Shown here: positions 11,946 to 28,865 of the stretch, piece after piece
Position numbering within the stretch: position 1 is the first letter of the stretch
Layout: the number at the start of each line of letters is the position of its first letter
DNA from: Nitrosopumilus sp.
GTDB taxonomy: Archaea > Thermoproteota > Nitrososphaeria > Nitrososphaerales > Nitrosopumilaceae
Assembly (NCBI GenBank): GCA_965197525.1
Contig: OZ240211.1
Coordinates: forward strand, 1,376,001 to 1,440,000
DNA length: 64,000 bases
Reading direction: 5' to 3'
The notes under the pieces: generated by a model
The model's input: the letters and a program-made list of their open reading frames with translations, nothing else
What the model was told of the DNA's origin: nothing
Database searches by the model: none
Position numbers and translations under genes: made by a program

Positions 11946-13007
11946 CTACTCTTCTTCCTCTATAATTAACTTTGACATTGTAATATCAGTTGCAATCTTT
12001 TGTTCTACTGCAAAAGCAATAGCTGCTAGATTCCTAATCTCAAATGATGTTAGTTTTGTGATGCCAACAATTGTTGCAAAGCTAAACATCTTTGTAAATG
12101 ATCTAATAGATGTACGGTATATTGACATCTCAAATGCGCGTTCAAATTCTGCAATGGCATCTAGCTCATTTTCAGATTGCGGAACAAGATCTTTGTATTT
12201 TGTACCTGCTATCTCATTGAACGCATCTCTGACAGTACCTACTGCCATTATTCTTGACAATAGTTCTTTTGCAGGAGGGCTAGTAGGTATTATTAGATCT
12301 TCTATCTGTTCATCTTGCAGCCCCCAGAACTTTCCTCTTATTACACTTAGAATATTGTAAAAATCAATATCCATAGCCACTATTTTTACTGCTTCCTTGT
12401 CAGAATAATTTTTCATTGCCGATGCTAGCTGCCGAAACAATATCTTGTCAAAATACGTATCCAGAATTTGCAAGTTCTTTCTCTCGTTGTACAACGCTGC
12501 AGCCTTTGCTATCTCATCTGCAAACTGTGCTGAATTTAAACTTGCAACTGCCTCTTCAAAATCTTTTGCAACTAATGCCTTGACTACGATATCTCTTTGC
12601 TTAATCAACTCTTCGGCATGAAGGTTTATGTGAGATTCAATCTCCTCTTGTGATTTTCCCAATATCTTCCCTTTTAGGATTAGTTTCAGATTAGAGATAA
12701 TAAATTTCATATAATATGCATCCAAAACCCCTGAACTACCTGATGTTTTTGCAATGGAGTAATGAATATCTGCTAGTTTACTTCTGAGTGCTGCTTCAAT
12801 ATTTTGTGAAGTGTATGGTTTTTGTACATTTGCTACTGCATCACTATATATGGTATTTTTTATTCTAGTCAACAACTCCTCCAAATCTCTTGCTTCAGCA
12901 AGCGTCTGAAAATCAGATTTTGTTAGTAATTTACCTCTTTTACTATATGCTTTTACAGAGGCATAGACATTTTTTGAACCACCCATAATAGCCAAGTCTT
13001 TTGCCAA
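11946..13007 (-). CDS. atpC: A/V-type ATP synthase subunit C (AC39 family)
   Basis: YASVKAYSKRGKLL, LDTYFDK, FEIRNLAAIA; length about 350 aa. Confidence 0.85.
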   Translation of the reverse strand: MAKDLAIMGGSKNVYASVKAYSKRGKLLTKSDFQTLAEARDLEELLTRIKNTIYSDAVANVQKPYTSQNIEAALRSKLADIHYSIAKTSGSSGVLDAYYMKFIISNLKLILKGKILGKSQEEIESHINLHAEELIKQRDIVVKALVAKDFEEAVASLNSAQFADEIAKAAALYNERKNLQILDTYFDKILFRQLASAMKNYSDKEAVKIVAMDIDFYNILSVIRGKFWGLQDEQIEDLIIPTSPPAKELLSRIMAVGTVRDAFNEIAGTKYKDLVPQSENELDAIAEFERAFEMSIYRTSIRSFTKMFSFATIVGITKLTSFEIRNLAAIAFAVEQKIATDITMSKLIIEEEE

Positions 13008-16407: not shown

Positions 16408-18510
16408 CTATTTGCTTTTTTTCCAAACAAATTGATTGTAAATCAATTCTGGTCTAATCTGTCTGAATGGTTGCGAACCACCTACATACCACTTTGTAAA
16501 GAACTCATACAAGTGCAACCTGAGAGATTGAATGTACACAATTAATCCCTCTATCATCATTATTCCTAGATTGCCCCCAATAATCATGGCTATTGCAGCG
16601 CCGGATTCAATACCTCCTAAAGATGTAAATGCATTATTTACAGTCAACAATAACGCCGCATGCACCAACAACATAATCCCTATTCGCGCATAACTAATGG
16701 TGTGAGCTAAACTCTCAACGGTTTTTCCTAATAACACCTCCATGACGACACTTGCCGGATCTCCTCCGTCCTCTGGATGCTTTTTTGCATGCATTATTCC
16801 ACCAACCATCATGATTACCATTGATGCAATTACAATAACTACCGCAATTCTTGTAACAATCCAAACTTGTGCCCAATCCCCTAGGAACATTGTCACCCAA
16901 GGAACAGCCTCTGTGTGTGCTCTAGAGTACATGTTTATTACATCATATTGGGAACCGATAGCGCACATCATAATGACAACGATTCCGCCGTATAGTGCAA
17001 CATTTGGAATAGCCTCTGTAAATACAACCAACTTGTGTCCTTCTTTTAACAATCTAATTATCCGCAACATCATAGCCCAAAGCAGATGCACAATCCCTAT
17101 GAATAGTGAAACTTTGAGGATATCAATGACTTGATCAAATGTTAGTTCAGCGACGCTCAACACTCCTACTATCCAACTAATCGAGTGCAACGCTCCTCCT
17201 TCCTCTAACAGTCCTTCAAATGGTGTCAAATGATCAAGGTGATACCCAAACGCTTCTCCTGCACCCACACCTGCAATAGCAGCCGACGCTCCAGAAATTG
17301 CAATTAGCATTCCCCATCTAGATAGCTCTCCTTGTCCTTTAAACTTGAATAGCAAACCTAATCCCATAAGCAGTAATCCATGACCCATATCTGCAAACAT
17401 TAATCCATAAAAGATTGGCCACATCAAAGCAATCATTGGGGTTGGATCTGGCTCTCCGGCCTTTGGTATTCCCTGACTCTTCGTAATGACCTCAAAAGTT
17501 TTAATGAATCTTTTATTATCAAACAATGTTGGAGTAGTCGCTTTGAGTTTTGGATCAGTTATATCTTCTACTACTGACATCCATTGCTTTGTCGATTCCG
17601 TAAATTTTGCTTCCATCTTTTCTGGAATAAATCCTTGAATTACTGCAAAGTTTTTTGTTCCACCTGGTTTTCTCAAAGTTTCAAGTACATCTTTTGCAAT
17701 AAGGGCTTTTTCATGGATGGATAAAATGTCCCTTCTATTCTTTTTTGTTAGCCCAGCTAGCTCTTTTTTTACGGCTACTTGTTTTGCAGTAAGTTCTTTT
17801 ATCTTTGTTTCTGCAAGAGTATATGCTTCACTAGGAATTTGAGGAAAACCCTCTGGAATCTTAAATGTATGCGTATTGAAACTTCTTAAAATTTTCAGAA
17901 TCTTTTCGGCATCACTACTAGGTACAATTACAAGAATCGCTGCCTTGTCCTTATTCTCTAAATCATATTTGTAAATTGTGGCATCCTCAAGTGAACGATT
18001 TATCTCATCATAATCACTTGAGTTAATTACAAAGATATTTACAAAGAATTGCCTCATTAAACCGAATCCAGACAAATCCATATTCATCTTTCTAATTATT
18101 TGTAATGTCTCTCTAAGCGAATTGAACTCTTCGATGGCAAGTCTAGTGTTTGCCGCATCTTCTAAAAGTTTTGCCGGTCTCTCAATAATTCTAGGAGCTT
18201 CTTCACTTAACTCTTTGACCATCTCTTCTATTTCATCCATCTCGTAGTCTTTCTTCTTGATTACGGTTCCTTTGAATAAAATCTCCATTATTCCTACAGT
18301 CGCAGGAATCCCCATTCCTTTGACTATATCATCAACTGACTGAAAAGTTTGTTGTGCCTTTAAGAGCAGATCATCAATTTCAGGTGTCACTCGATCACCT
18401 TCGGCGTCAATCTTATGATACCATTCAAATTCCGTTAATCTAGAAATTGCTCTAGGTGACTCACTTCTCGGTAATATCACAGTTCCTAGTTTCAAATCAG
18501 CGGTTCCCAA
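16408..18510 (-). CDS. atpI: A/V-type ATP synthase subunit I (a)
   Basis: 700 aa; EPDPTP, FYGLMFADMGHG, SHTISYARI-type essential Arg, QSLRLHLYEFFTKWY. Confidence 0.95.
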   Translation of the reverse strand: MGTADLKLGTVILPRSESPRAISRLTEFEWYHKIDAEGDRVTPEIDDLLLKAQQTFQSVDDIVKGMGIPATVGIMEILFKGTVIKKKDYEMDEIEEMVKELSEEAPRIIERPAKLLEDAANTRLAIEEFNSLRETLQIIRKMNMDLSGFGLMRQFFVNIFVINSSDYDEINRSLEDATIYKYDLENKDKAAILVIVPSSDAEKILKILRSFNTHTFKIPEGFPQIPSEAYTLAETKIKELTAKQVAVKKELAGLTKKNRRDILSIHEKALIAKDVLETLRKPGGTKNFAVIQGFIPEKMEAKFTESTKQWMSVVEDITDPKLKATTPTLFDNKRFIKTFEVITKSQGIPKAGEPDPTPMIALMWPIFYGLMFADMGHGLLLMGLGLLFKFKGQGELSRWGMLIAISGASAAIAGVGAGEAFGYHLDHLTPFEGLLEEGGALHSISWIVGVLSVAELTFDQVIDILKVSLFIGIVHLLWAMMLRIIRLLKEGHKLVVFTEAIPNVALYGGIVVIMMCAIGSQYDVINMYSRAHTEAVPWVTMFLGDWAQVWIVTRIAVVIVIASMVIMMVGGIMHAKKHPEDGGDPASVVMEVLLGKTVESLAHTISYARIGIMLLVHAALLLTVNNAFTSLGGIESGAAIAMIIGGNLGIMMIEGLIVYIQSLRLHLYEFFTKWYVGGSQPFRQIRPELIYNQFVWKKSK

Positions 18511-18728
18511 GATAAATTTCTGGAATTTTATTCGTGTTTAATATCTTTCTGATTTATTTTTCGGTTCTGTTGCATTCACGAGTGGTATTATTAACAATAA
18601 CAATCACTCAGAACACTGGACTTTGACATATCGACTATCTGGATTACCGGTATACAGGGTTCCATCATCGCTGACTCAAAAACGTCAGACTGCGCTTCAC
18701 TTATGCCAACTCTACTATCCCTAAACCT

Positions 18729-18917
18729 AGGATGTTTTGCCTCTTTTGTGTCTGGGTTATTACAGGTAGGGCACCTTCTGCCATCCCTCCATATTCTAGA
18801 TTCAAACCATTTCTCTGCTGTATCATTATCAGGAAACATCTTGAATAACTCCATCAAGGTAATACCTTTTCTAAATGATTTGCCTGGTGCTTGTGTGTCT
18901 TTCTTGTTTTTATTCAT
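18729..18917 (-). pseudogene. IS1595 transposase N-terminal fragment (zinc ribbon only)
   Basis: APGKSFRKGITLMELFKMFPDNDTAEKWFESRIWRDGRRCPTC matches the IS1595 N-terminus; no DDE/ISXO2-like domain follows. Confidence 0.75.
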
Positions 18918-19190
18918 ATATCTCATACTGATCTGACCTCTTGCCTGCCTTGCACTCGTGCATAAGACCTCTTTAAAATTAATATACCACAAAAAGAATC
19001 AAAAGATGGCTCAGAGCAAAGCCTATTCATCATGAATCGGCTTTCAGTCAATAGTTCTCCCAAACTAGAGCCTTTTCTTTTCATCATCGCCATTCTTTTC
19101 ATACATACTATACGTTTTAACTACATATATACTATATGTTTTGGCTATATATAGTAAACAATTATATAATGATTATAGCTATGTTTGTGT

Positions 19191-19334
19191 ATGAGCATGA
19201 AAGTCGATGGTGCATATTGGCGACACGAATGTAACAGGTGCAATGAGATTTGGTACAGCAGGAATGAATCTCCTAAGAATTGTAACAACAAGAAATGTAA
19301 TTCTCCATATTGGAACAAGGAACGTGTAAGGTGA
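19191..19334 (+). CDS. 47-aa zinc-finger passenger protein (not in ORF track)
   Basis: MSMKVDGAYWRHECNRCNEIWYSRNESPKNCNNKKCNSPYWNKERVR*; C-x2-C..W..P..C..C.SPYWN archaeal micro-zinc-finger pattern. Confidence 0.7.
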   Translation: MSMKVDGAYWRHECNRCNEIWYSRNESPKNCNNKKCNSPYWNKERVR

Positions 19335-19448
19335 GACAACCCAAGGGTTTGATAGGTCAGGGAATTTGAGACTACCCAAGTATAGTTCAACATAAAAGTA
19401 AATTTTTATATTATTCACATTTATATTATATTTTAAAAACTACTTGAC

Positions 19449-19592
19449 ATGAGCGAGATTCTATCGCAAACACGACTGGTAAGCGAAGACGAAGTTAAGA
19501 AATTGAAGGAGGAATTTGTAAAACAAGACGATCTCATAAAAGGAGATTGTTTTTTGGATCTGCTAGACGAAATTGACAAGCATATCAATTAG
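19449..19592 (+). CDS. 47-aa acidic helical passenger protein (not in ORF track)
   Basis: MSEILSQTRLVSEDEVKKLKEEFVKQDDLIKGDCFLDLLDEIDKHIN*. Confidence 0.45.
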   Translation: MSEILSQTRLVSEDEVKKLKEEFVKQDDLIKGDCFLDLLDEIDKHIN

Positions 19593-19827
19593 TGCATCCG
19601 ATGAACACGATTTGCGTAAAATAGGCATGAGAGTGTATTACTCTGCACATGTTCAAATGGATGAATTCTGGAATTACGTGATACAAAGAAAGGCAACCGA
19701 TTCAGGACACCTACAGTCGCAGGAACGCATATTTCAGATGAGAACCCTAAACAAATCTTTACGTATGATCTACGATCAATCAACCGATTCAATTTTTTGT
19801 AAACTTGTAACCTTGAATGATTTTTGA
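19573..19827 (+). CDS. Small passenger protein, weakly RelE/DUF4258-like
   Basis: Overlaps the upstream small ORF; 'YSAH' and 'LRMIYDQ..SIFCKLVT' resemble RelE-superfamily strands; the start may be ATG at 19627. Confidence 0.4.
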   Translation: MTSISISASDEHDLRKIGMRVYYSAHVQMDEFWNYVIQRKATDSGHLQSQERIFQMRTLNKSLRMIYDQSTDSIFCKLVTLNDF

Positions 19828-20051
19828 TTTTTCAACTACCATACTCAGCTTCAGATAATCCAACCGAATCCAAAACTTGATTTCAGCACCCGATAACTTC
19901 ACAGAACCAAGTATACCCATGTATATAATCCCCATAAATTACAAGGCTTGTTTTTAATAAAGGTGCTTTTTTTATTTATTTGGTTTTATTTTACCACTCG
20001 TGAATGCAACAGAGCCTATTTTTCCAAACATTAAAATTTATTATGACTTGA

Positions 20052-20660
20052 TTGCATTCATTGACATCTAATTTAGCACTGGAAAAGACGATTGACAACG
20101 TTTTGCTCAATACCGAAAAAAATATTCAGGCAAGCATCAAATCTGGTCTAGAGGACTCCCAACAAAGACTAGATGATTCTCTATTGATGCTAGATGCTGA
20201 ATACGATAAAATCTTGTTTGATGCTAAAAAAGAGGCTGACAAGCTTGAAAAACAGATAATTGGCGGCGCTGATATTAAGGCTAGAAATCAGCAACTAGTC
20301 CTGTTAGAACAAGCAGTTGATGGTGTATTTTCAAAAGCATTAGAACATATTACAAATATTGATAAAAGCGGTGACTATACAAATCTCATCAAGGCATTGA
20401 TAGTAGAGTCAACCCAAATCTTAGGAACTAACGAAGTTATTGTTTTTACAAATAGTAAAGACAGAAAAATAGTTGAATCTGTACTTTCAGAATTCCCAAC
20501 AGCAGTCCTGTCTTCTGACACATTTGACTGTCTGGGCGGCATTAAAGCCCACTCTAAGGATGGAACAATGACATTTGATAATACACTTGATGCAAGAATT
20601 CAACGTATGAAGCCTTTAATAAGGAAAGATATTGCAGCAAAATTCGGAGTGGGAAATTAA
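20052..20660 (+). CDS. atpE: A/V-type ATP synthase subunit E
   Basis: Coiled-coil N-terminus; CLGGIKA, FDNTLDARI C-terminal motif; likely start TTG 20061. Confidence 0.9.
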   Translation: MHSLTSNLALEKTIDNVLLNTEKNIQASIKSGLEDSQQRLDDSLLMLDAEYDKILFDAKKEADKLEKQIIGGADIKARNQQLVLLEQAVDGVFSKALEHITNIDKSGDYTNLIKALIVESTQILGTNEVIVFTNSKDRKIVESVLSEFPTAVLSSDTFDCLGGIKAHSKDGTMTFDNTLDARIQRMKPLIRKDIAAKFGVGN

Positions 20661-20661
20661 A

Positions 20662-20943
20662 ATGGTAGCTACGAGTAGAATTGTTTGGATGAGTGCCGAT
20701 ACTTACTGCAGTCCAGAAAAACAATATGGATTATTAAAATCGCTAGTTGACTTTTACCACAAGGCGCAACAAACTCTTAGAGAAGGTAGATTATTATCTG
20801 ATATACGTACTCTGCCAATACTGACTAGTCTTCTTAAAACTAGAATTGATATTAAATATGACCAGATGCCAAAAATAGATCAATTAGATAAAAGTATGCA
20901 AACCCCATTCAAATCAATTACAGGAGTGAAAGTATCGAATTGA
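20662..20943 (+). pseudogene. atpA: ATP synthase subunit A remnant (about 11 N-terminal residues fused in frame to about 80 C-terminal residues)
   Basis: MVATSRIVWMS|A|DTYCSPEKQY...[11 protein letters not shown] at the atpA position between atpE and atpB; no Walker A/B. Confidence 0.85.
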
Positions 20944-22325
20944 CAACAACAGGTGGAATCCAATACAGTAAGATTGCCGAGATCAAAGGTCCTCTAGTTG
21001 TGGTAGACGACGTTGAGAGTGCAGCATTTGATGAGTTAGTTGAGATTGAAACTACTGACGGCGAAAGAAGATTGGGTAAAGTCCTTGAAGTAGGAAATGG
21101 TAAAGCAGTTGTCCAAGTTTTTGAGGGAACAACTGGTTTGTCTATATCTGAAACCAATGCAAAGTTTGTAGGTAAAGTTATGGAGATGCCAGTATCAAAA
21201 GAGGTGCTAGGTAGAGTCTTTGATGGATTAGGTAGACCAAAAGACGGACTACCGGATCCAATTGCTGATAAATTTATTGACATTAATGGCGAACCTATGA
21301 ATCCTGAACAGCGTGAATATCCGAAAGACTTTATTCAAACCGGCGTCTCCGTCATTGACGGAATGATGACTCTGGTAAGGGGACAAAAACTTCCAATATT
21401 CTCAGGCTCAGGCATGTCTCACAATCTTCTGGCAGCACAAATTGCAAGACAGGCCAGTGTTCTTGGAACACAAGATGACTTTGCTGTAGTATTTGCAGCA
21501 ATAGGCGTGCAGTATAGTGAGGCAGAATATTTCAGACGAAGTTTAGAAGAGTCTGGAGCACTCAAAAGGAGTGTGCTATTTTTAAATACAGCAGACGATC
21601 CTGCAATTGAGAGGATTATTACTCCACGTGTAGCACTTACTGTAGCTGAGTACCTAGCTTTTGATTTAGGAATGCATGTTTTAGTTATTCTAACTGATAT
21701 GACAAACTATGCAGAGGCATTAAGGGAGATAAGTGCAGCACGAGAAGAGGTTCCTGGAAGAAAAGGATATCCAGGCTATCTTTACACTGATCTTTCAACA
21801 ATATATGAGCGAGCAGGTAAACTAAATGGAAGAGATGGAAGTGTTACCCAAGTTCCTATTCTATCCATGCCATCGGATGATATCACTCATCCGATACCTG
21901 ATCTGACAGGTTATATCACAGAAGGTCAAGTAGTACTAGGCAGAGATCTATTCAGACAAGGCATATATCCACCAATCAATATTTTGATGAGTCTTAGTAG
22001 GTTGATGAAAGATGGTATTGGTGAAGGCAGTACAAGAGCAGATCACGGCGAAATATCCAACCAAGTCTATGATGCGTATTCTCGATCACAAGAGGTGAAA
22101 GCATTAGCAGGTATTGTTGGAAAAGCAGGCCTAACTGACATTGATCTTAAATATATGGACGTAGGTGAGATCTTTGAAAAAGAGTTTCTTACACAAGCAA
22201 CTGATGAGAATAGAACTATTGAAGAGACACTGGCAATTCTATGGAAGATTGTATCAAAACTACCAAAAAGCGAGATTACAAAGATCAAAGACAAATTTAT
22301 TGATCAATACTACAAGGACGAATAA
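20940..22325 (+). CDS. atpB: A/V-type ATP synthase subunit B
   Basis: [43 protein letters not shown]; full length. Confidence 0.97.
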
Positions 22326-22328
22326 ATA

Positions 22329-22961
22329 ATGTCATTTGGACAAAACGTTGCTGCGACAAAGATTGAACTGCTAAAATATAAAAAATCAACCCAAGTTGCA
22401 GTCATGGTTCAGAAAATTTTAGATGACAAACGGAAAATTCTTTTAAAAAATGTCGAAGAAATGATTACTGAAGCATCAAAAGCAAGAGGTGGGATTTGGG
22501 ATCCACTACAAGACATCTATACAGCAGTTAATGAAGCATATCTGGCACTTGGTACCAATACAGTTGATTCTGTTGCCGAATCAACTCCACCTGTGATGGA
22601 AGTAGATGTTTATATTAAACGTGTAGTTGACGTAAAAATTCCTGCACTCACAGTAACTGAAAAGGATACAAAATCAATGCCTTATGGATTTGCAGATACA
22701 AATTCTTCTATTGACAGAGCTGCCAAACAGATCAAAGAGCTACTTCCAAAAATCTGCAAAGCAGCCGAGTATGAAAATTCTATCTTTAGTCTTGCCAAAG
22801 CATTAGAAAAGACTCAAAAGTTGTTAAATGCACTTGAAAACGTAATTATTCCTCAATATAGCCAAAAAATTAGATTTATTTTAGCTACTCTTGAGGAGAG
22901 AGAGCGAGAAGAATTCGCAAAGTTAAAAAAAGTCAAAGCAAAGATGGAGAGTAGAAAGTAA
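22329..22961 (+). CDS. atpD: A/V-type ATP synthase subunit D
   Basis: TKIELLKYKK, LDDKR, KTQKLLNALE..IIP, LEEREREEF. Confidence 0.93.
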   Translation: MSFGQNVAATKIELLKYKKSTQVAVMVQKILDDKRKILLKNVEEMITEASKARGGIWDPLQDIYTAVNEAYLALGTNTVDSVAESTPPVMEVDVYIKRVVDVKIPALTVTEKDTKSMPYGFADTNSSIDRAAKQIKELLPKICKAAEYENSIFSLAKALEKTQKLLNALENVIIPQYSQKIRFILATLEEREREEFAKLKKVKAKMESRK

Positions 22962-23092
22962 TGGCAAACAAAGAGATAAAAAAATTATTAAACAAATCTA
23001 AAAAGAAACTAGACGCTGACTACGATAATTTTGTCAAATCTATCGAGACTGATCTACAGTCGTTTAAAAAGACAACATTATCTCAGATCTAA
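22961..23092 (+). CDS. 43-aa helical peptide coupled to atpD (not in ORF track)
   Basis: TAATG stop/start overlap with atpD; MANKEIKKLLNKSKKKLDADYDNFVKSIETDLQSFKKTTLSQI*. Confidence 0.55.
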   Translation: MANKEIKKLLNKSKKKLDADYDNFVKSIETDLQSFKKTTLSQI

Positions 23093-23143: not shown

Positions 23144-23449
23144 ATGAAAACAATCGTCATGTTACTTTTGGCAGCATCAGTAATCTCAATTCTTGGTTCA
23201 ACTGGAATTGCATATGCCCAAGAGGACTCTGCATCTAGCGGTGACTCTATGAAACTTCTAGGAGCTGGTTTAGCATTTGGTATTGCAGCCGGCGGAGCAG
23301 GAATTGGTCTTGGTCAGGTAGGTGCAGCAGGACTTGCAGTTATTAGCGAGAATCCTGCATTACAGTCAAAGGTGTTTATCTTCGTAGGCATGGTTGAATC
23401 AATTGCCATCTACGGCATAGTCATGATGTTTATCATCTTGGGACAGTAG
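23144..23449 (+). CDS. atpK: ATP synthase proteolipid subunit K/c with N-terminal leader
   Basis: GAGLAFGIAAGGAGIG hairpin; conserved Glu in GMVESIAIYG. Confidence 0.95.
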   Translation: MKTIVMLLLAASVISILGSTGIAYAQEDSASSGDSMKLLGAGLAFGIAAGGAGIGLGQVGAAGLAVISENPALQSKVFIFVGMVESIAIYGIVMMFIILGQ

Positions 23450-27596: not shown

Positions 27597-28865
27597 ATGA
27601 ATCGCCAAACTAAACTTGCAGTTGCAGCAATCATGATTATAATTCCTCTAAGTATTGTAGGAGTTTATAGTACTAGTATTGATTCACCAACAATTGATGA
27701 GTCTAGTGATTCAAAATTAAAAGTTATTGCATCATTTGATCCACTTTATAGATTCTCAAAAATAGTTGGAGGTGATTTAGTTGATGTTACTTTACTTGTT
27801 CCAGTAGGCGTAGAGCCACATGATTGGGAACCAACAGTAAATGATGTAAGAGAAATAAATGCATCTGATCTAATAGTTATCAACGGCATAGGTTTTGAGA
27901 CCTGGGTTGATGATCTGTATATTAATAATTATCAAGGAAGAATAATTGATACTAGTATTGGTATTTTTAATGATGAAGAAAAAGGACACACTGATGAAGA
28001 AAGGCATGATGAAGAACATGAAGAGGGACACACTGATGAAGAAAGGCATGATGAAGAACATGAAGAGGGACACACTGATGAAGAAAGGCATGATGAAGAA
28101 CATGAAGAGGGACACACTGATGAAGAAAGGCATGATGAAGAACATGAAGAGGGACACACTGATGAAGAAAGGCATGATGAAGAACATGAAGAGGGACACA
28201 CTGATGAAGAAAGGCATGATGAAGAACATGAAGAGGGACACACTGATGAAGAAAGGCATGATGAAGAACATGAAGAGGGACACACTGATGAAGAAAGGCA
28301 TGATGAAGAACATGAAGAGGGACACGTACATGAATCAGGCGATCCTCATATTTGGTTAAATCCAGTTTATGCTAAAATTCAAATCCAAAATATTGCAGAT
28401 GCGTTCTCTGAATCTGATCCTCAAAATAGAGAATATTATCAGAAAAATGCTGTTGCCTATATCCAAAAACTCGATCAACTTGATTTACAAATTAGAGACG
28501 AGTTATCTGGTTGCAAAACTGATTTTATAGCTTTTCATAATGCATTCTCGTATTTTGCAAATGAGTATGGTCTTACACAACACACAATTGTTTCATCAAG
28601 TGGTTCTCATGGTGAGGTTACGGCCAAGACGCTACAAGATGTAATTTCTACTGCTAAATCATTAGATATCAAAATAATTTTCAGTGAAGAGAATGTATCT
28701 TCTAGAACATCTGAAATAATCGCAGATGAAATCGGAGGTGATGTATTGCTCTTATCACCGTTGGAGATAACTAATACCGAAGATGATAATGATGATGATG
28801 ATGCCGACTATATCTCTCGAATGACTACAAATCTTGAAAATCTAAGAGTAGCTCTATGTCAATAA
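27597..28865 (+). CDS. znuA: Zn/Mn ABC transporter substrate-binding protein with expanded His/Glu loop
   Basis: EPHDWEP, DPHIWL, HNAFSYFA cluster A-I motifs. Confidence 0.9.
   Translation: MNRQTKLAVAAIMIIIPLSIVGVYSTSIDSPTIDESSDSKLKVIASFDPLYRFSKIVGGDLVDVTLLVPVGVEPHDWEPTVNDVREINASDLIVINGIGFETWVDDLYINNYQGRIIDTSIGIFNDEEKGHTDEERHDEEHEEGHTDEERHDEEHEEGHTDEERHDEEHEEGHTDEERHDEEHEEGHTDEERHDEEHEEGHTDEERHDEEHEEGHTDEERHDEEHEEGHTDEERHDEEHEEGHVHESGDPHIWLNPVYAKIQIQNIADAFSESDPQNREYYQKNAVAYIQKLDQLDLQIRDELSGCKTDFIAFHNAFSYFANEYGLTQHTIVSSSGSHGEVTAKTLQDVISTAKSLDIKIIFSEENVSSRTSEIIADEIGGDVLLLSPLEITNTEDDNDDDDADYISRMTTNLENLRVALCQ
27984..28319 (+). repeat. 8 x 42-bp perfect coding tandem repeat (GHTDEERHDEEHEE)
   Basis: 336 bp = 8 identical units, each beginning GGACACACTGATGAAGAAAGG. 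Confidence 0.95.

Follow-up and report, generated by a model that had tools for sequence, protein, structure and literature searches.

Analysis of the ATP synthase locus of a Nitrosopumilus species revealed that the gene for the catalytic A subunit is reduced, at its usual position between atpE and atpB, to a 93-amino-acid stub, and that an intact atpA lies elsewhere on the same chromosome. ATP synthase catalytic genes are textbook cases of stable, operon-bound, vertically inherited genes and serve as phylogenetic markers. The genome (G000) is a closed 2.21-Mb chromosome, 99% complete, with the contig label C1; the window analysed is a stretch of 64,000 nucleotides of it, to which coordinates without a genome label refer. 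The locus comprises the following features:

11946 to 13007, minus strand: atpC, subunit C/d, 353 aa, separate from the operon (PF01992, E 7e-59)
16408 to 18510, minus strand: atpI, 700 aa, divergent from atpE (PF01496, E 4e-23)
18563 to 20016, no strand assigned: IS1595-like cassette of 1454 bp between atpI and atpE, in the divergent promoter region
20052 to 20660, plus strand: atpE, 202 aa (PF01991, E 2e-16)
20662 to 20943, plus strand: atpA stub, a 93-aa ORF with AtpA residues 1-11/12 fused in frame to the last ~82
20923 to 20929, plus strand: GGAGTGA, a Shine-Dalgarno-like (SD-like) motif for atpB within the last codons of the stub
20940 to 20943, plus strand: TTGA overlap of the atpB TTG start (20940-20942) and the stub TGA stop (20941-20943)
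20940 to 22325, plus strand: atpB, 461 aa, intact, TTG start (PF00006, E 3e-82)
22329 to 22961, plus strand: atpD, 210 aa (PF01813, E 2e-50)
22961 to 23092, plus strand: conserved 43-aa ORF overlapping the atpD stop, at the same place in genome G018 (below) and in canonical operons
23144 to 23449, plus strand: atpK, c subunit, 101 aa (PF00137, E 4e-17)

In its genes, their order and their overlaps, this locus matches the canonical A-type locus of the Nitrosopumilaceae, in which atpI is divergent, atpE, atpA, atpB, atpD, the 43-aa ORF and atpK follow one another, and atpC and atpF are detached. The neighbours amt and pyrI/pyrB are also common to both, as in L128 and on the P0035 contig, and the canonical locus, like that of G000, already has some of its subunits in trans. 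In contrast to the full atpA of the canonical locus, G000 has the 93-aa stub and a monocistronic atpA 1.2 Mb away with a different C-terminal module. The earlier note had taken the partner genes C, I, E, B, D and K to be intact; of these, atpC stands outside the operon, 7 kb upstream and on the minus strand. atpF is 565 kb distant, and a whole-genome search found atpC and atpF each in single copy. The product of the 43-aa ORF is charged and may be a small stalk subunit.

The IS1595-like cassette has 32-nt terminal inverted repeats that are 88% complementary and a weak match to Zn_ribbon_IS1595 (E 0.006, below the cut-off); its transposase ORF is only a fragment, and a domain search of 18563-20016 showed no DDE domain. 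The insertion, which had been proposed to fit a retirement of the enzyme, is real, as its inverted repeats attest, but nothing ties it to the atpA deletion. The cassette may influence transcription of the operon.

The stub ATG lies one base beyond the atpE stop (TAA, 20658-20660). Residues 1-12 of the stub align with AtpA residues 1-12, and residues 13-86 correspond to residues 513-586 of the full-length AtpA of G000 itself (BLASTP E 4e-15), placing the junction at ~20695-20697; residues 11-93 share 57-69% identity with the C-terminal ends of operon-encoded AtpA from 20 species of the genus, so that both ends of the stub are homologous to AtpA. About 500 AtpA residues are missing, the P-loop domain among them: hmmscan assigned the stub to no Pfam family, including the subunit A P-loop family PF00006, and its translation contains no Walker A motif (GxxGxGKT). 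At the other end the TTGA at 20940-20943 overlaps the stop of the stub with the start of atpB, as expected of a translationally coupled gene pair. What had first been read from the letters alone, namely an in-frame fusion of N- and C-terminal pieces at the atpA position, a junction near 20695, the absence of the Walker motifs with some 500 residues, and a preserved tight joining to atpE and atpB, is thus borne out by the ORF, the alignments and the domain search.

A genome search for another atpA or a second ATPase operon, which the earlier note had advised, located an intact atpA and no second operon. The relevant features outside the operon are:

G000:C1:187366-189138: standalone atpA, 591 aa, intact (PF02874, PF16886, PF00006 and PF22919 above cut-offs)
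G000:C1:182386-182685 and 189599-189898 (L029 2386-2685 and 9599-9898): two TnpB elements

The standalone gene, ~1.2 Mb from the operon, encodes the motifs GAFGTGKT, GERGNEM and DSTSRWAE together with the domains of a complete subunit A, and its product ends in ...DIDKQFGTLKCVAK. Exactly two PF00006 genes, the atpB of the window and the standalone atpA, are present in the whole closed genome, and searches with PF00006, PF01992 and PF01990 gave no extra copies, leading us to reject a second ATPase operon. With two PF00006 genes and a single atpC and atpF, G000 is predicted to make one A-type ATP synthase whose catalytic A subunit is supplied in trans by the standalone atpA. This agrees with one of the possibilities raised earlier, a relocated atpA working in trans, and refutes another, the retirement of the enzyme in favour of a second operon. 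A TATA-like box, TTTAAATA, lies 23 nt before the standalone ATG, and the standalone copies of the two other species described below have TTTATATT (G018) and TTTATATG (G117) at the same distance from the ATG, which fits leaderless monocistronic transcripts from putative promoters of their own. A sigma-70 and terminator scan was set aside as irrelevant to archaeal promoters.

A second atpB, of 58-59% identity, occurs in three other species of the genus (G153:C1:1242325-1243686, G070:C15:49634-50992 and G158:C7:793198-794556), and presumably marks a V-type-like operon acquired horizontally, as in the literature. This type of atpB is absent from G000.

The stub was also found outside the G000 assembly. 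L050, a JGI metagenome contig independent of that assembly, carries the identical junction; its allele encodes 92 aa and has 86% identity to the G000 stub. The two alleles differ by 13 nonsynonymous and 3 synonymous changes (dN/dS, omega, 1.14), some of them inside the conserved DTYCSPEKQ motif, and the L050 allele has a one-codon insertion, the sole indel observed among the alleles, and terminates two codons early at a TAG that lies 5 nt upstream of the TTG of atpB. In the same comparison dN/dS is 0.18 for the 3' end of atpE and 0.014 for the 5' part of atpB. The loss of the catalytic domain combined with relaxed selection (1.14 versus 0.014-0.18 in flanking genes) makes the G000-type stub a unitary pseudogene or relic. 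Compared with the tails of eight congeners that keep atpA in the operon, the tail of the stub has 67-70% identity and differs at 55-66 of 243 nt; those eight differ from one another by 8-41 nt. The protein sequence of the G000 stub thus drifts freely, and the standalone gene, whose product is 98% identical to the AtpA of a close relative, encoded on an ENA contig in the same TrkH...IlvD context, is conserved. The loss had been thought recent because the partner genes are intact; however, the deletion is older than a split at dS ~0.12-0.15, and subsequent drift has brought the stub to its present 67-70% identity.

A survey of the genus identified a parallel case. In most species atpA lies directly upstream of atpB, the exceptions besides G000 being G018 (record OZ244137.1, Nitrosopumilus sp., closed, 1.89 Mb) and G117 (Langseth_MAG_00093, 83% complete). 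In G018 the standalone atpA is 212 kb from the operon, and a 48-aa ORF between atpE and atpB joins AtpA residues 1-41 in frame to MGVKVSN (41 + 7 aa); it begins 3 nt past the atpE stop, and at its other end the TGA overlaps the TTG of atpB. The junction is unlike that of G000, indicating an independent deletion. Four more assemblies carry the G018-type junction and have substitutions at sites that do not vary among working AtpAs. Between the G018 and L132 stubs there are 2 nonsynonymous and 5 synonymous changes (omega 0.11), counts too few to interpret although unlike a neutral pattern, and the total rate of the G018-type stub, 4.8%, is ~2x that of its neighbours. G117 has a standalone atpA, and is excluded from the stub count because atpB, atpD and atpI of its operon are missing from the 83%-complete MAG.

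The 3' part of the standalone genes, described below as a distinct module, is present in 3 of 151 species genomes of the genus; an order-wide search of 401 genomes yielded no further clear carrier, and recent ENA, Logan and NCBI assemblies added at least five further standalone sequence types. In no genome examined were both full-length atpA copies found together. Short AtpA-like ORFs in the protein database were considered as additional stubs and rejected, since most are contig-end fragments or frameshifted genes from low-coverage assemblies (e.g. P0161).

Why should a gutted gene keep an open reading frame? Translational coupling by termination-reinitiation at overlapping stop and start codons has been described for bacteria and haloarchaea. 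The arrangement in G000 resembles such pairs in its 4-nt TGA/TTG overlap, in the SD-like motif inside the upstream ORF and in an upstream ORF that starts right past the stop of the preceding gene. Unlike known coupled pairs, the upstream ORF of G000 is, as read from sequence alone, a gutted gene whose sole role would apparently be to carry ribosomes. Across the genus the 3' end of atpA reads ...GGAGTGAAAGTATCAAA-TTG-A, so that the TTG of atpB overlaps the atpA stop, and a GGAG(T)GA or GGAG(G)TGA motif precedes the TTG by 10-13 nt; other genera have GGAGGTGA there. Conservation of the AA-TTG-A overlap and the SD-like motif extends from the genus to outgroups, and in most congeners examined the overlap links a full-length atpA with atpB. 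Both the G000 and G018 stubs keep the original atpA start and a 3' piece with the SD-like motif. Loss of the 3' piece would silence atpB, a likely reason why the stub ends were kept. In addition, both deletions are in frame and seven of seven alleles are open, suggesting that ribosomes arriving from atpE translate the stub and then reinitiate at atpB. We infer, with moderate support, that the stub acts as a bridge ORF for translational coupling of atpE to atpB.

The alternative that deserves most attention is that the stub is a plain pseudogene relic, open by chance, with atpB initiating from its own SD-like motif and constraint acting only on the last ~20 nt (the ribosome-binding site and start of atpB) and on the first bases beside the atpE stop. 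An SD-like motif does precede atpB, so an open upstream frame may be unnecessary, and both the L050 allele and the full-length atpA of G002 stop a few bases before the TTG with no overlap. The statistics of openness also leave room for it. If all 55-66 differences were random, the probability of encountering no stop codon would be 0.02-0.04, and a fair value is nearer ~0.1 because many of the differences predate the deletion or lie on the branches of the relatives; these figures are further biased because the window was chosen for its open frame. Two in-frame junctions have a chance of ~1/9 (1/3 each). Against the relic stand two independent deletions, each in frame and each spanning exactly the distance from the old start to the atpB start, the five G018-type and two G000-type alleles that remain open despite amino-acid changes at otherwise invariant positions, and the fact that the sole indel is a whole codon. 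On balance, we regard a chance-open relic as unlikely, though a serious competitor to a bridge ORF.

The standalone genes themselves are mosaic. Their products are normal relative to in-operon AtpA to about residue 420 and become increasingly divergent thereafter: in the last two segments compared their identity to the operon genes is 0.36 and then 0.19, compared with 0.75-0.79 for the operon copies among themselves. All standalone AtpAs end in ...QFGTL(K/R)..., whereas operon AtpAs end in ...GVKVSN. Comparison of G018 with its sister G002 gave dS values of 0.59 for atpB, 0.76 for ribonucleotide reductase (RNR, our second species marker beside AtpB) and 0.79 for atpA codons 1-420, whereas from codon 421 to the end pS is 0.82 (saturated) and nucleotide identity is 0.61. 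Sliding identity switches at ~codon 420, past which G018 is nearer to G117 than to its own sisters. Between G018 and G117 the 3' module shows dN 0.146 and dS 1.57, indicating purifying selection. Over its first 123 nt, the G018 stub agrees with the standalone gene of its own genome at 118 positions, compared with 110 for G002. Base composition adds a further discontinuity: GC3 of the G117 standalone gene is ~0.35 over codons 1-400 and ~0.58 over codons 401-590, with host genes of the same contig at 0.46-0.59, and the GC3 of the 3' module agrees with that of the host in G000 and G018.

Phylogenetic analysis of the two parts was consistent with this mosaic structure. Trees of AtpB and RNR, the two proteins on which species placement is based, group G018 with G002 and G151 (support 99-100), both of which retain the canonical operon, and place G000 elsewhere; percent-identity rankings of AtpB and RNR varied too little to assign G000 a position. 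A single clade (support 99) unites the 3' parts of 14 standalone genes and of standalone P0030, and the sister of this clade comprises operon genes of a different Nitrosopumilaceae lineage. AU tests (likelihood tests of a forced grouping) rejected, for the 3' part, a grouping of G018 with its sisters (delta lnL 122) and, for AtpB+RNR, a G000+G018 clade (delta lnL 215, p 2.7e-5), the p-values being optimistic because the groups were named after the trees had been seen. Trees of the 5' part did not discriminate between the hypotheses (AU p 0.52-0.53), and residues 210-420 of AtpA are 97-100% identical across the genus. Codons 1 to ~420 of the G018 standalone gene evidently descend from the atpA of its own lineage; for G000 the evidence is weaker and is consistent with a native origin. 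Codons ~420-590, on the other hand, evidently form one distinct module that is restricted to standalone atpA genes and common to non-sister species, a distribution pointing to horizontal spread with recombination.

In some congeners the RNR open frames are 1227-1273 aa long, compared with 885 aa in G000, with the match split in two (G021:C1:2043193-2046933, G148:C1:855695-859444, G151:C1:624524-625900 and G130:C1:1227624-1230017). The pattern resembles that of an nrdJ gene interrupted by an intein or another insertion.

The surroundings of the standalone copies differ among genomes. Beyond the coding sequence, no common flanking genes or DNA were found for those of G000, G018 and G117, and in other assemblies the standalone atpA lies amid transposases and integrases. 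For example, on a 2.93-Mb contig of ENA ERZ28763718 it is located between two 497-aa genes of the phage integrase family in the same orientation, raising the possibility of an integrative element carrying atpA. In G000 the two TnpB-only elements (Cas12f1-like TNB domain) are direct, 97% identical and 7.2 kb apart, and enclose the genes for TrkH and a 286-aa membrane protein as well as the standalone atpA. A composite transposon was considered for this arrangement and rejected: the TrkH...atpA...IlvD context of the close relative lacks the TnpB elements, which therefore arrived later in G000.

The most economical history, as we reconstruct it from the gene sequences, would begin with horizontal arrival of a standalone atpA, whose conserved 5' two thirds the resident gene would have converted; the redundant operon copy would then have been lost independently, more than once, by internal deletion. 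In G000 such a deletion would have removed codons ~12-510 in frame. The one A-type ATP synthase, normal in other respects, would receive its catalytic A subunit in trans from the standalone gene. The remaining stub, probably devoid of protein function, would be kept because its 3' end holds the ribosome-binding site of atpB and the overlapping TTG, and its open frame, from the atpE stop to the atpB start, probably delivers ribosomes to atpB by termination-reinitiation. The order and direction of these steps are the most provisional elements: in G117 the 5' part has a composition unlike that of the host and the 3' module does not, suggesting that the direction of exchange may differ between lineages, and no donor of the standalone atpA was identified. 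For the explanation as a whole, an atpA acting in trans, a relic coupling stub and a recombinant standalone gene, we estimate a probability of about 0.7.

The same gene distribution could have arisen with no horizontal transfer, from an old duplication at the base of the genus followed by 5' gene conversion and later loss of either copy. The standalone gene of G018 is, in its 5' part, as near to G002 as other orthologues are and 96% identical to its own stub, so that conversion or duplication within the lineage is required in any case; the agreement of 3'-module and host GC3 in G000 and G018 also suits a native gene. However, with the module in only 3 of 151 species genomes and both full copies together in none examined, many independent losses of the standalone gene would be required. 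The unrelated, mobile-element-rich contexts of the copies, the GC3 step inside the G117 gene, which points to recent exchange, and the position of an operon gene of another Nitrosopumilaceae lineage as sister of the module all argue against it as well. An old duplication with concerted evolution and many losses is therefore less economical than horizontal arrival, and we consider it improbable.

Retention of the 93-aa peptide as a functional remnant of the helical C-terminal part of AtpA, also suggested earlier, is far less probable still. The frame is open and probably translated, since the atpA start context is kept, but a dN/dS of ~1.1, changes to the conserved DTYCSPEKQ motif, the lack of a Pfam domain, the mere 7 C-terminal residues in the G018 stub, which lacks that domain, and the complete C-terminal domain of the standalone AtpA leave this proposal unsupported. 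An assembly artefact or an enzyme retired for a second operon can be dismissed with near certainty, the first because the junction recurs on the independent L050 contig and has parallels in other closed genomes, G018 among them, and the second because G000 has no second A/B pair, atpC or atpF, although three congeners have a second atpB.

A broader reading, which we put forward tentatively and hold at less than even odds, is that a standalone atpA cassette of single origin circulates in host-associated, IS-rich Nitrosopumilus, recombines with each resident atpA at a recurrent breakpoint near codon 400-420 and repeatedly displaces the operon copy, each time leaving behind a selected in-frame bridge ORF that serves only to pass ribosomes from atpE to atpB. 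If so, an essential catalytic subunit of a core energy enzyme would be encoded by a gene that is both mobile and modular, and operon punctuation would be kept by selection on an ORF with no meaning of its own.

We found no description in the literature of atpA relocation with an in-operon stub, and the genomics papers on sponge Thaumarchaeota that we consulted do not discuss atpA. Wang et al. 2019 (PMC6863869) described horizontal transfer of whole ATPase operons in Thaumarchaeota, in which a complete V-type-like operon from Euryarchaeota-like donors was added or swapped; the words truncated, relocated and synteny do not occur in that paper. Both cases involve ATP synthase genes of ammonia-oxidising archaea moving horizontally. 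In contrast to transfer of a whole operon, the case described here would involve one subunit gene, or its 3' third, moving within a genus and recombining with the resident copy. It also resembles xenologous or paralogous displacement followed by pseudogene decay, in that one copy becomes redundant once another is present, and then decays. It departs from usual displacement in the clean in-frame internal deletion that occurred twice independently with operon punctuation preserved, and in the mosaic nature of the displacing atpA, with a fixed breakpoint near codon 400-420.

In sum, several lineages of this ecologically important genus no longer have atpA in the operon, and the C-terminal module of the relocated gene has a history different from that of the rest, so that AtpA trees of these archaea can mislead. 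Automated annotation will label such genomes 'atpA-deficient' or 'truncated'. The separate transcription of A and B predicted here suggests that A3B3 stoichiometry can be maintained when the two genes are unlinked, and the repeated in-frame stubs offer a natural experiment on whether archaeal operons are expressed by ribosome hand-over or by independent initiation.

Elsewhere in the window, a 422-aa ORF (27597-28865) contains eight perfect tandem copies of a 42-bp unit at 27984-28325, each encoding a His/Glu/Asp-rich 14-aa repeat (GHTDEERHDEEHEE). The copies are 100% identical, suggesting a very recent expansion.
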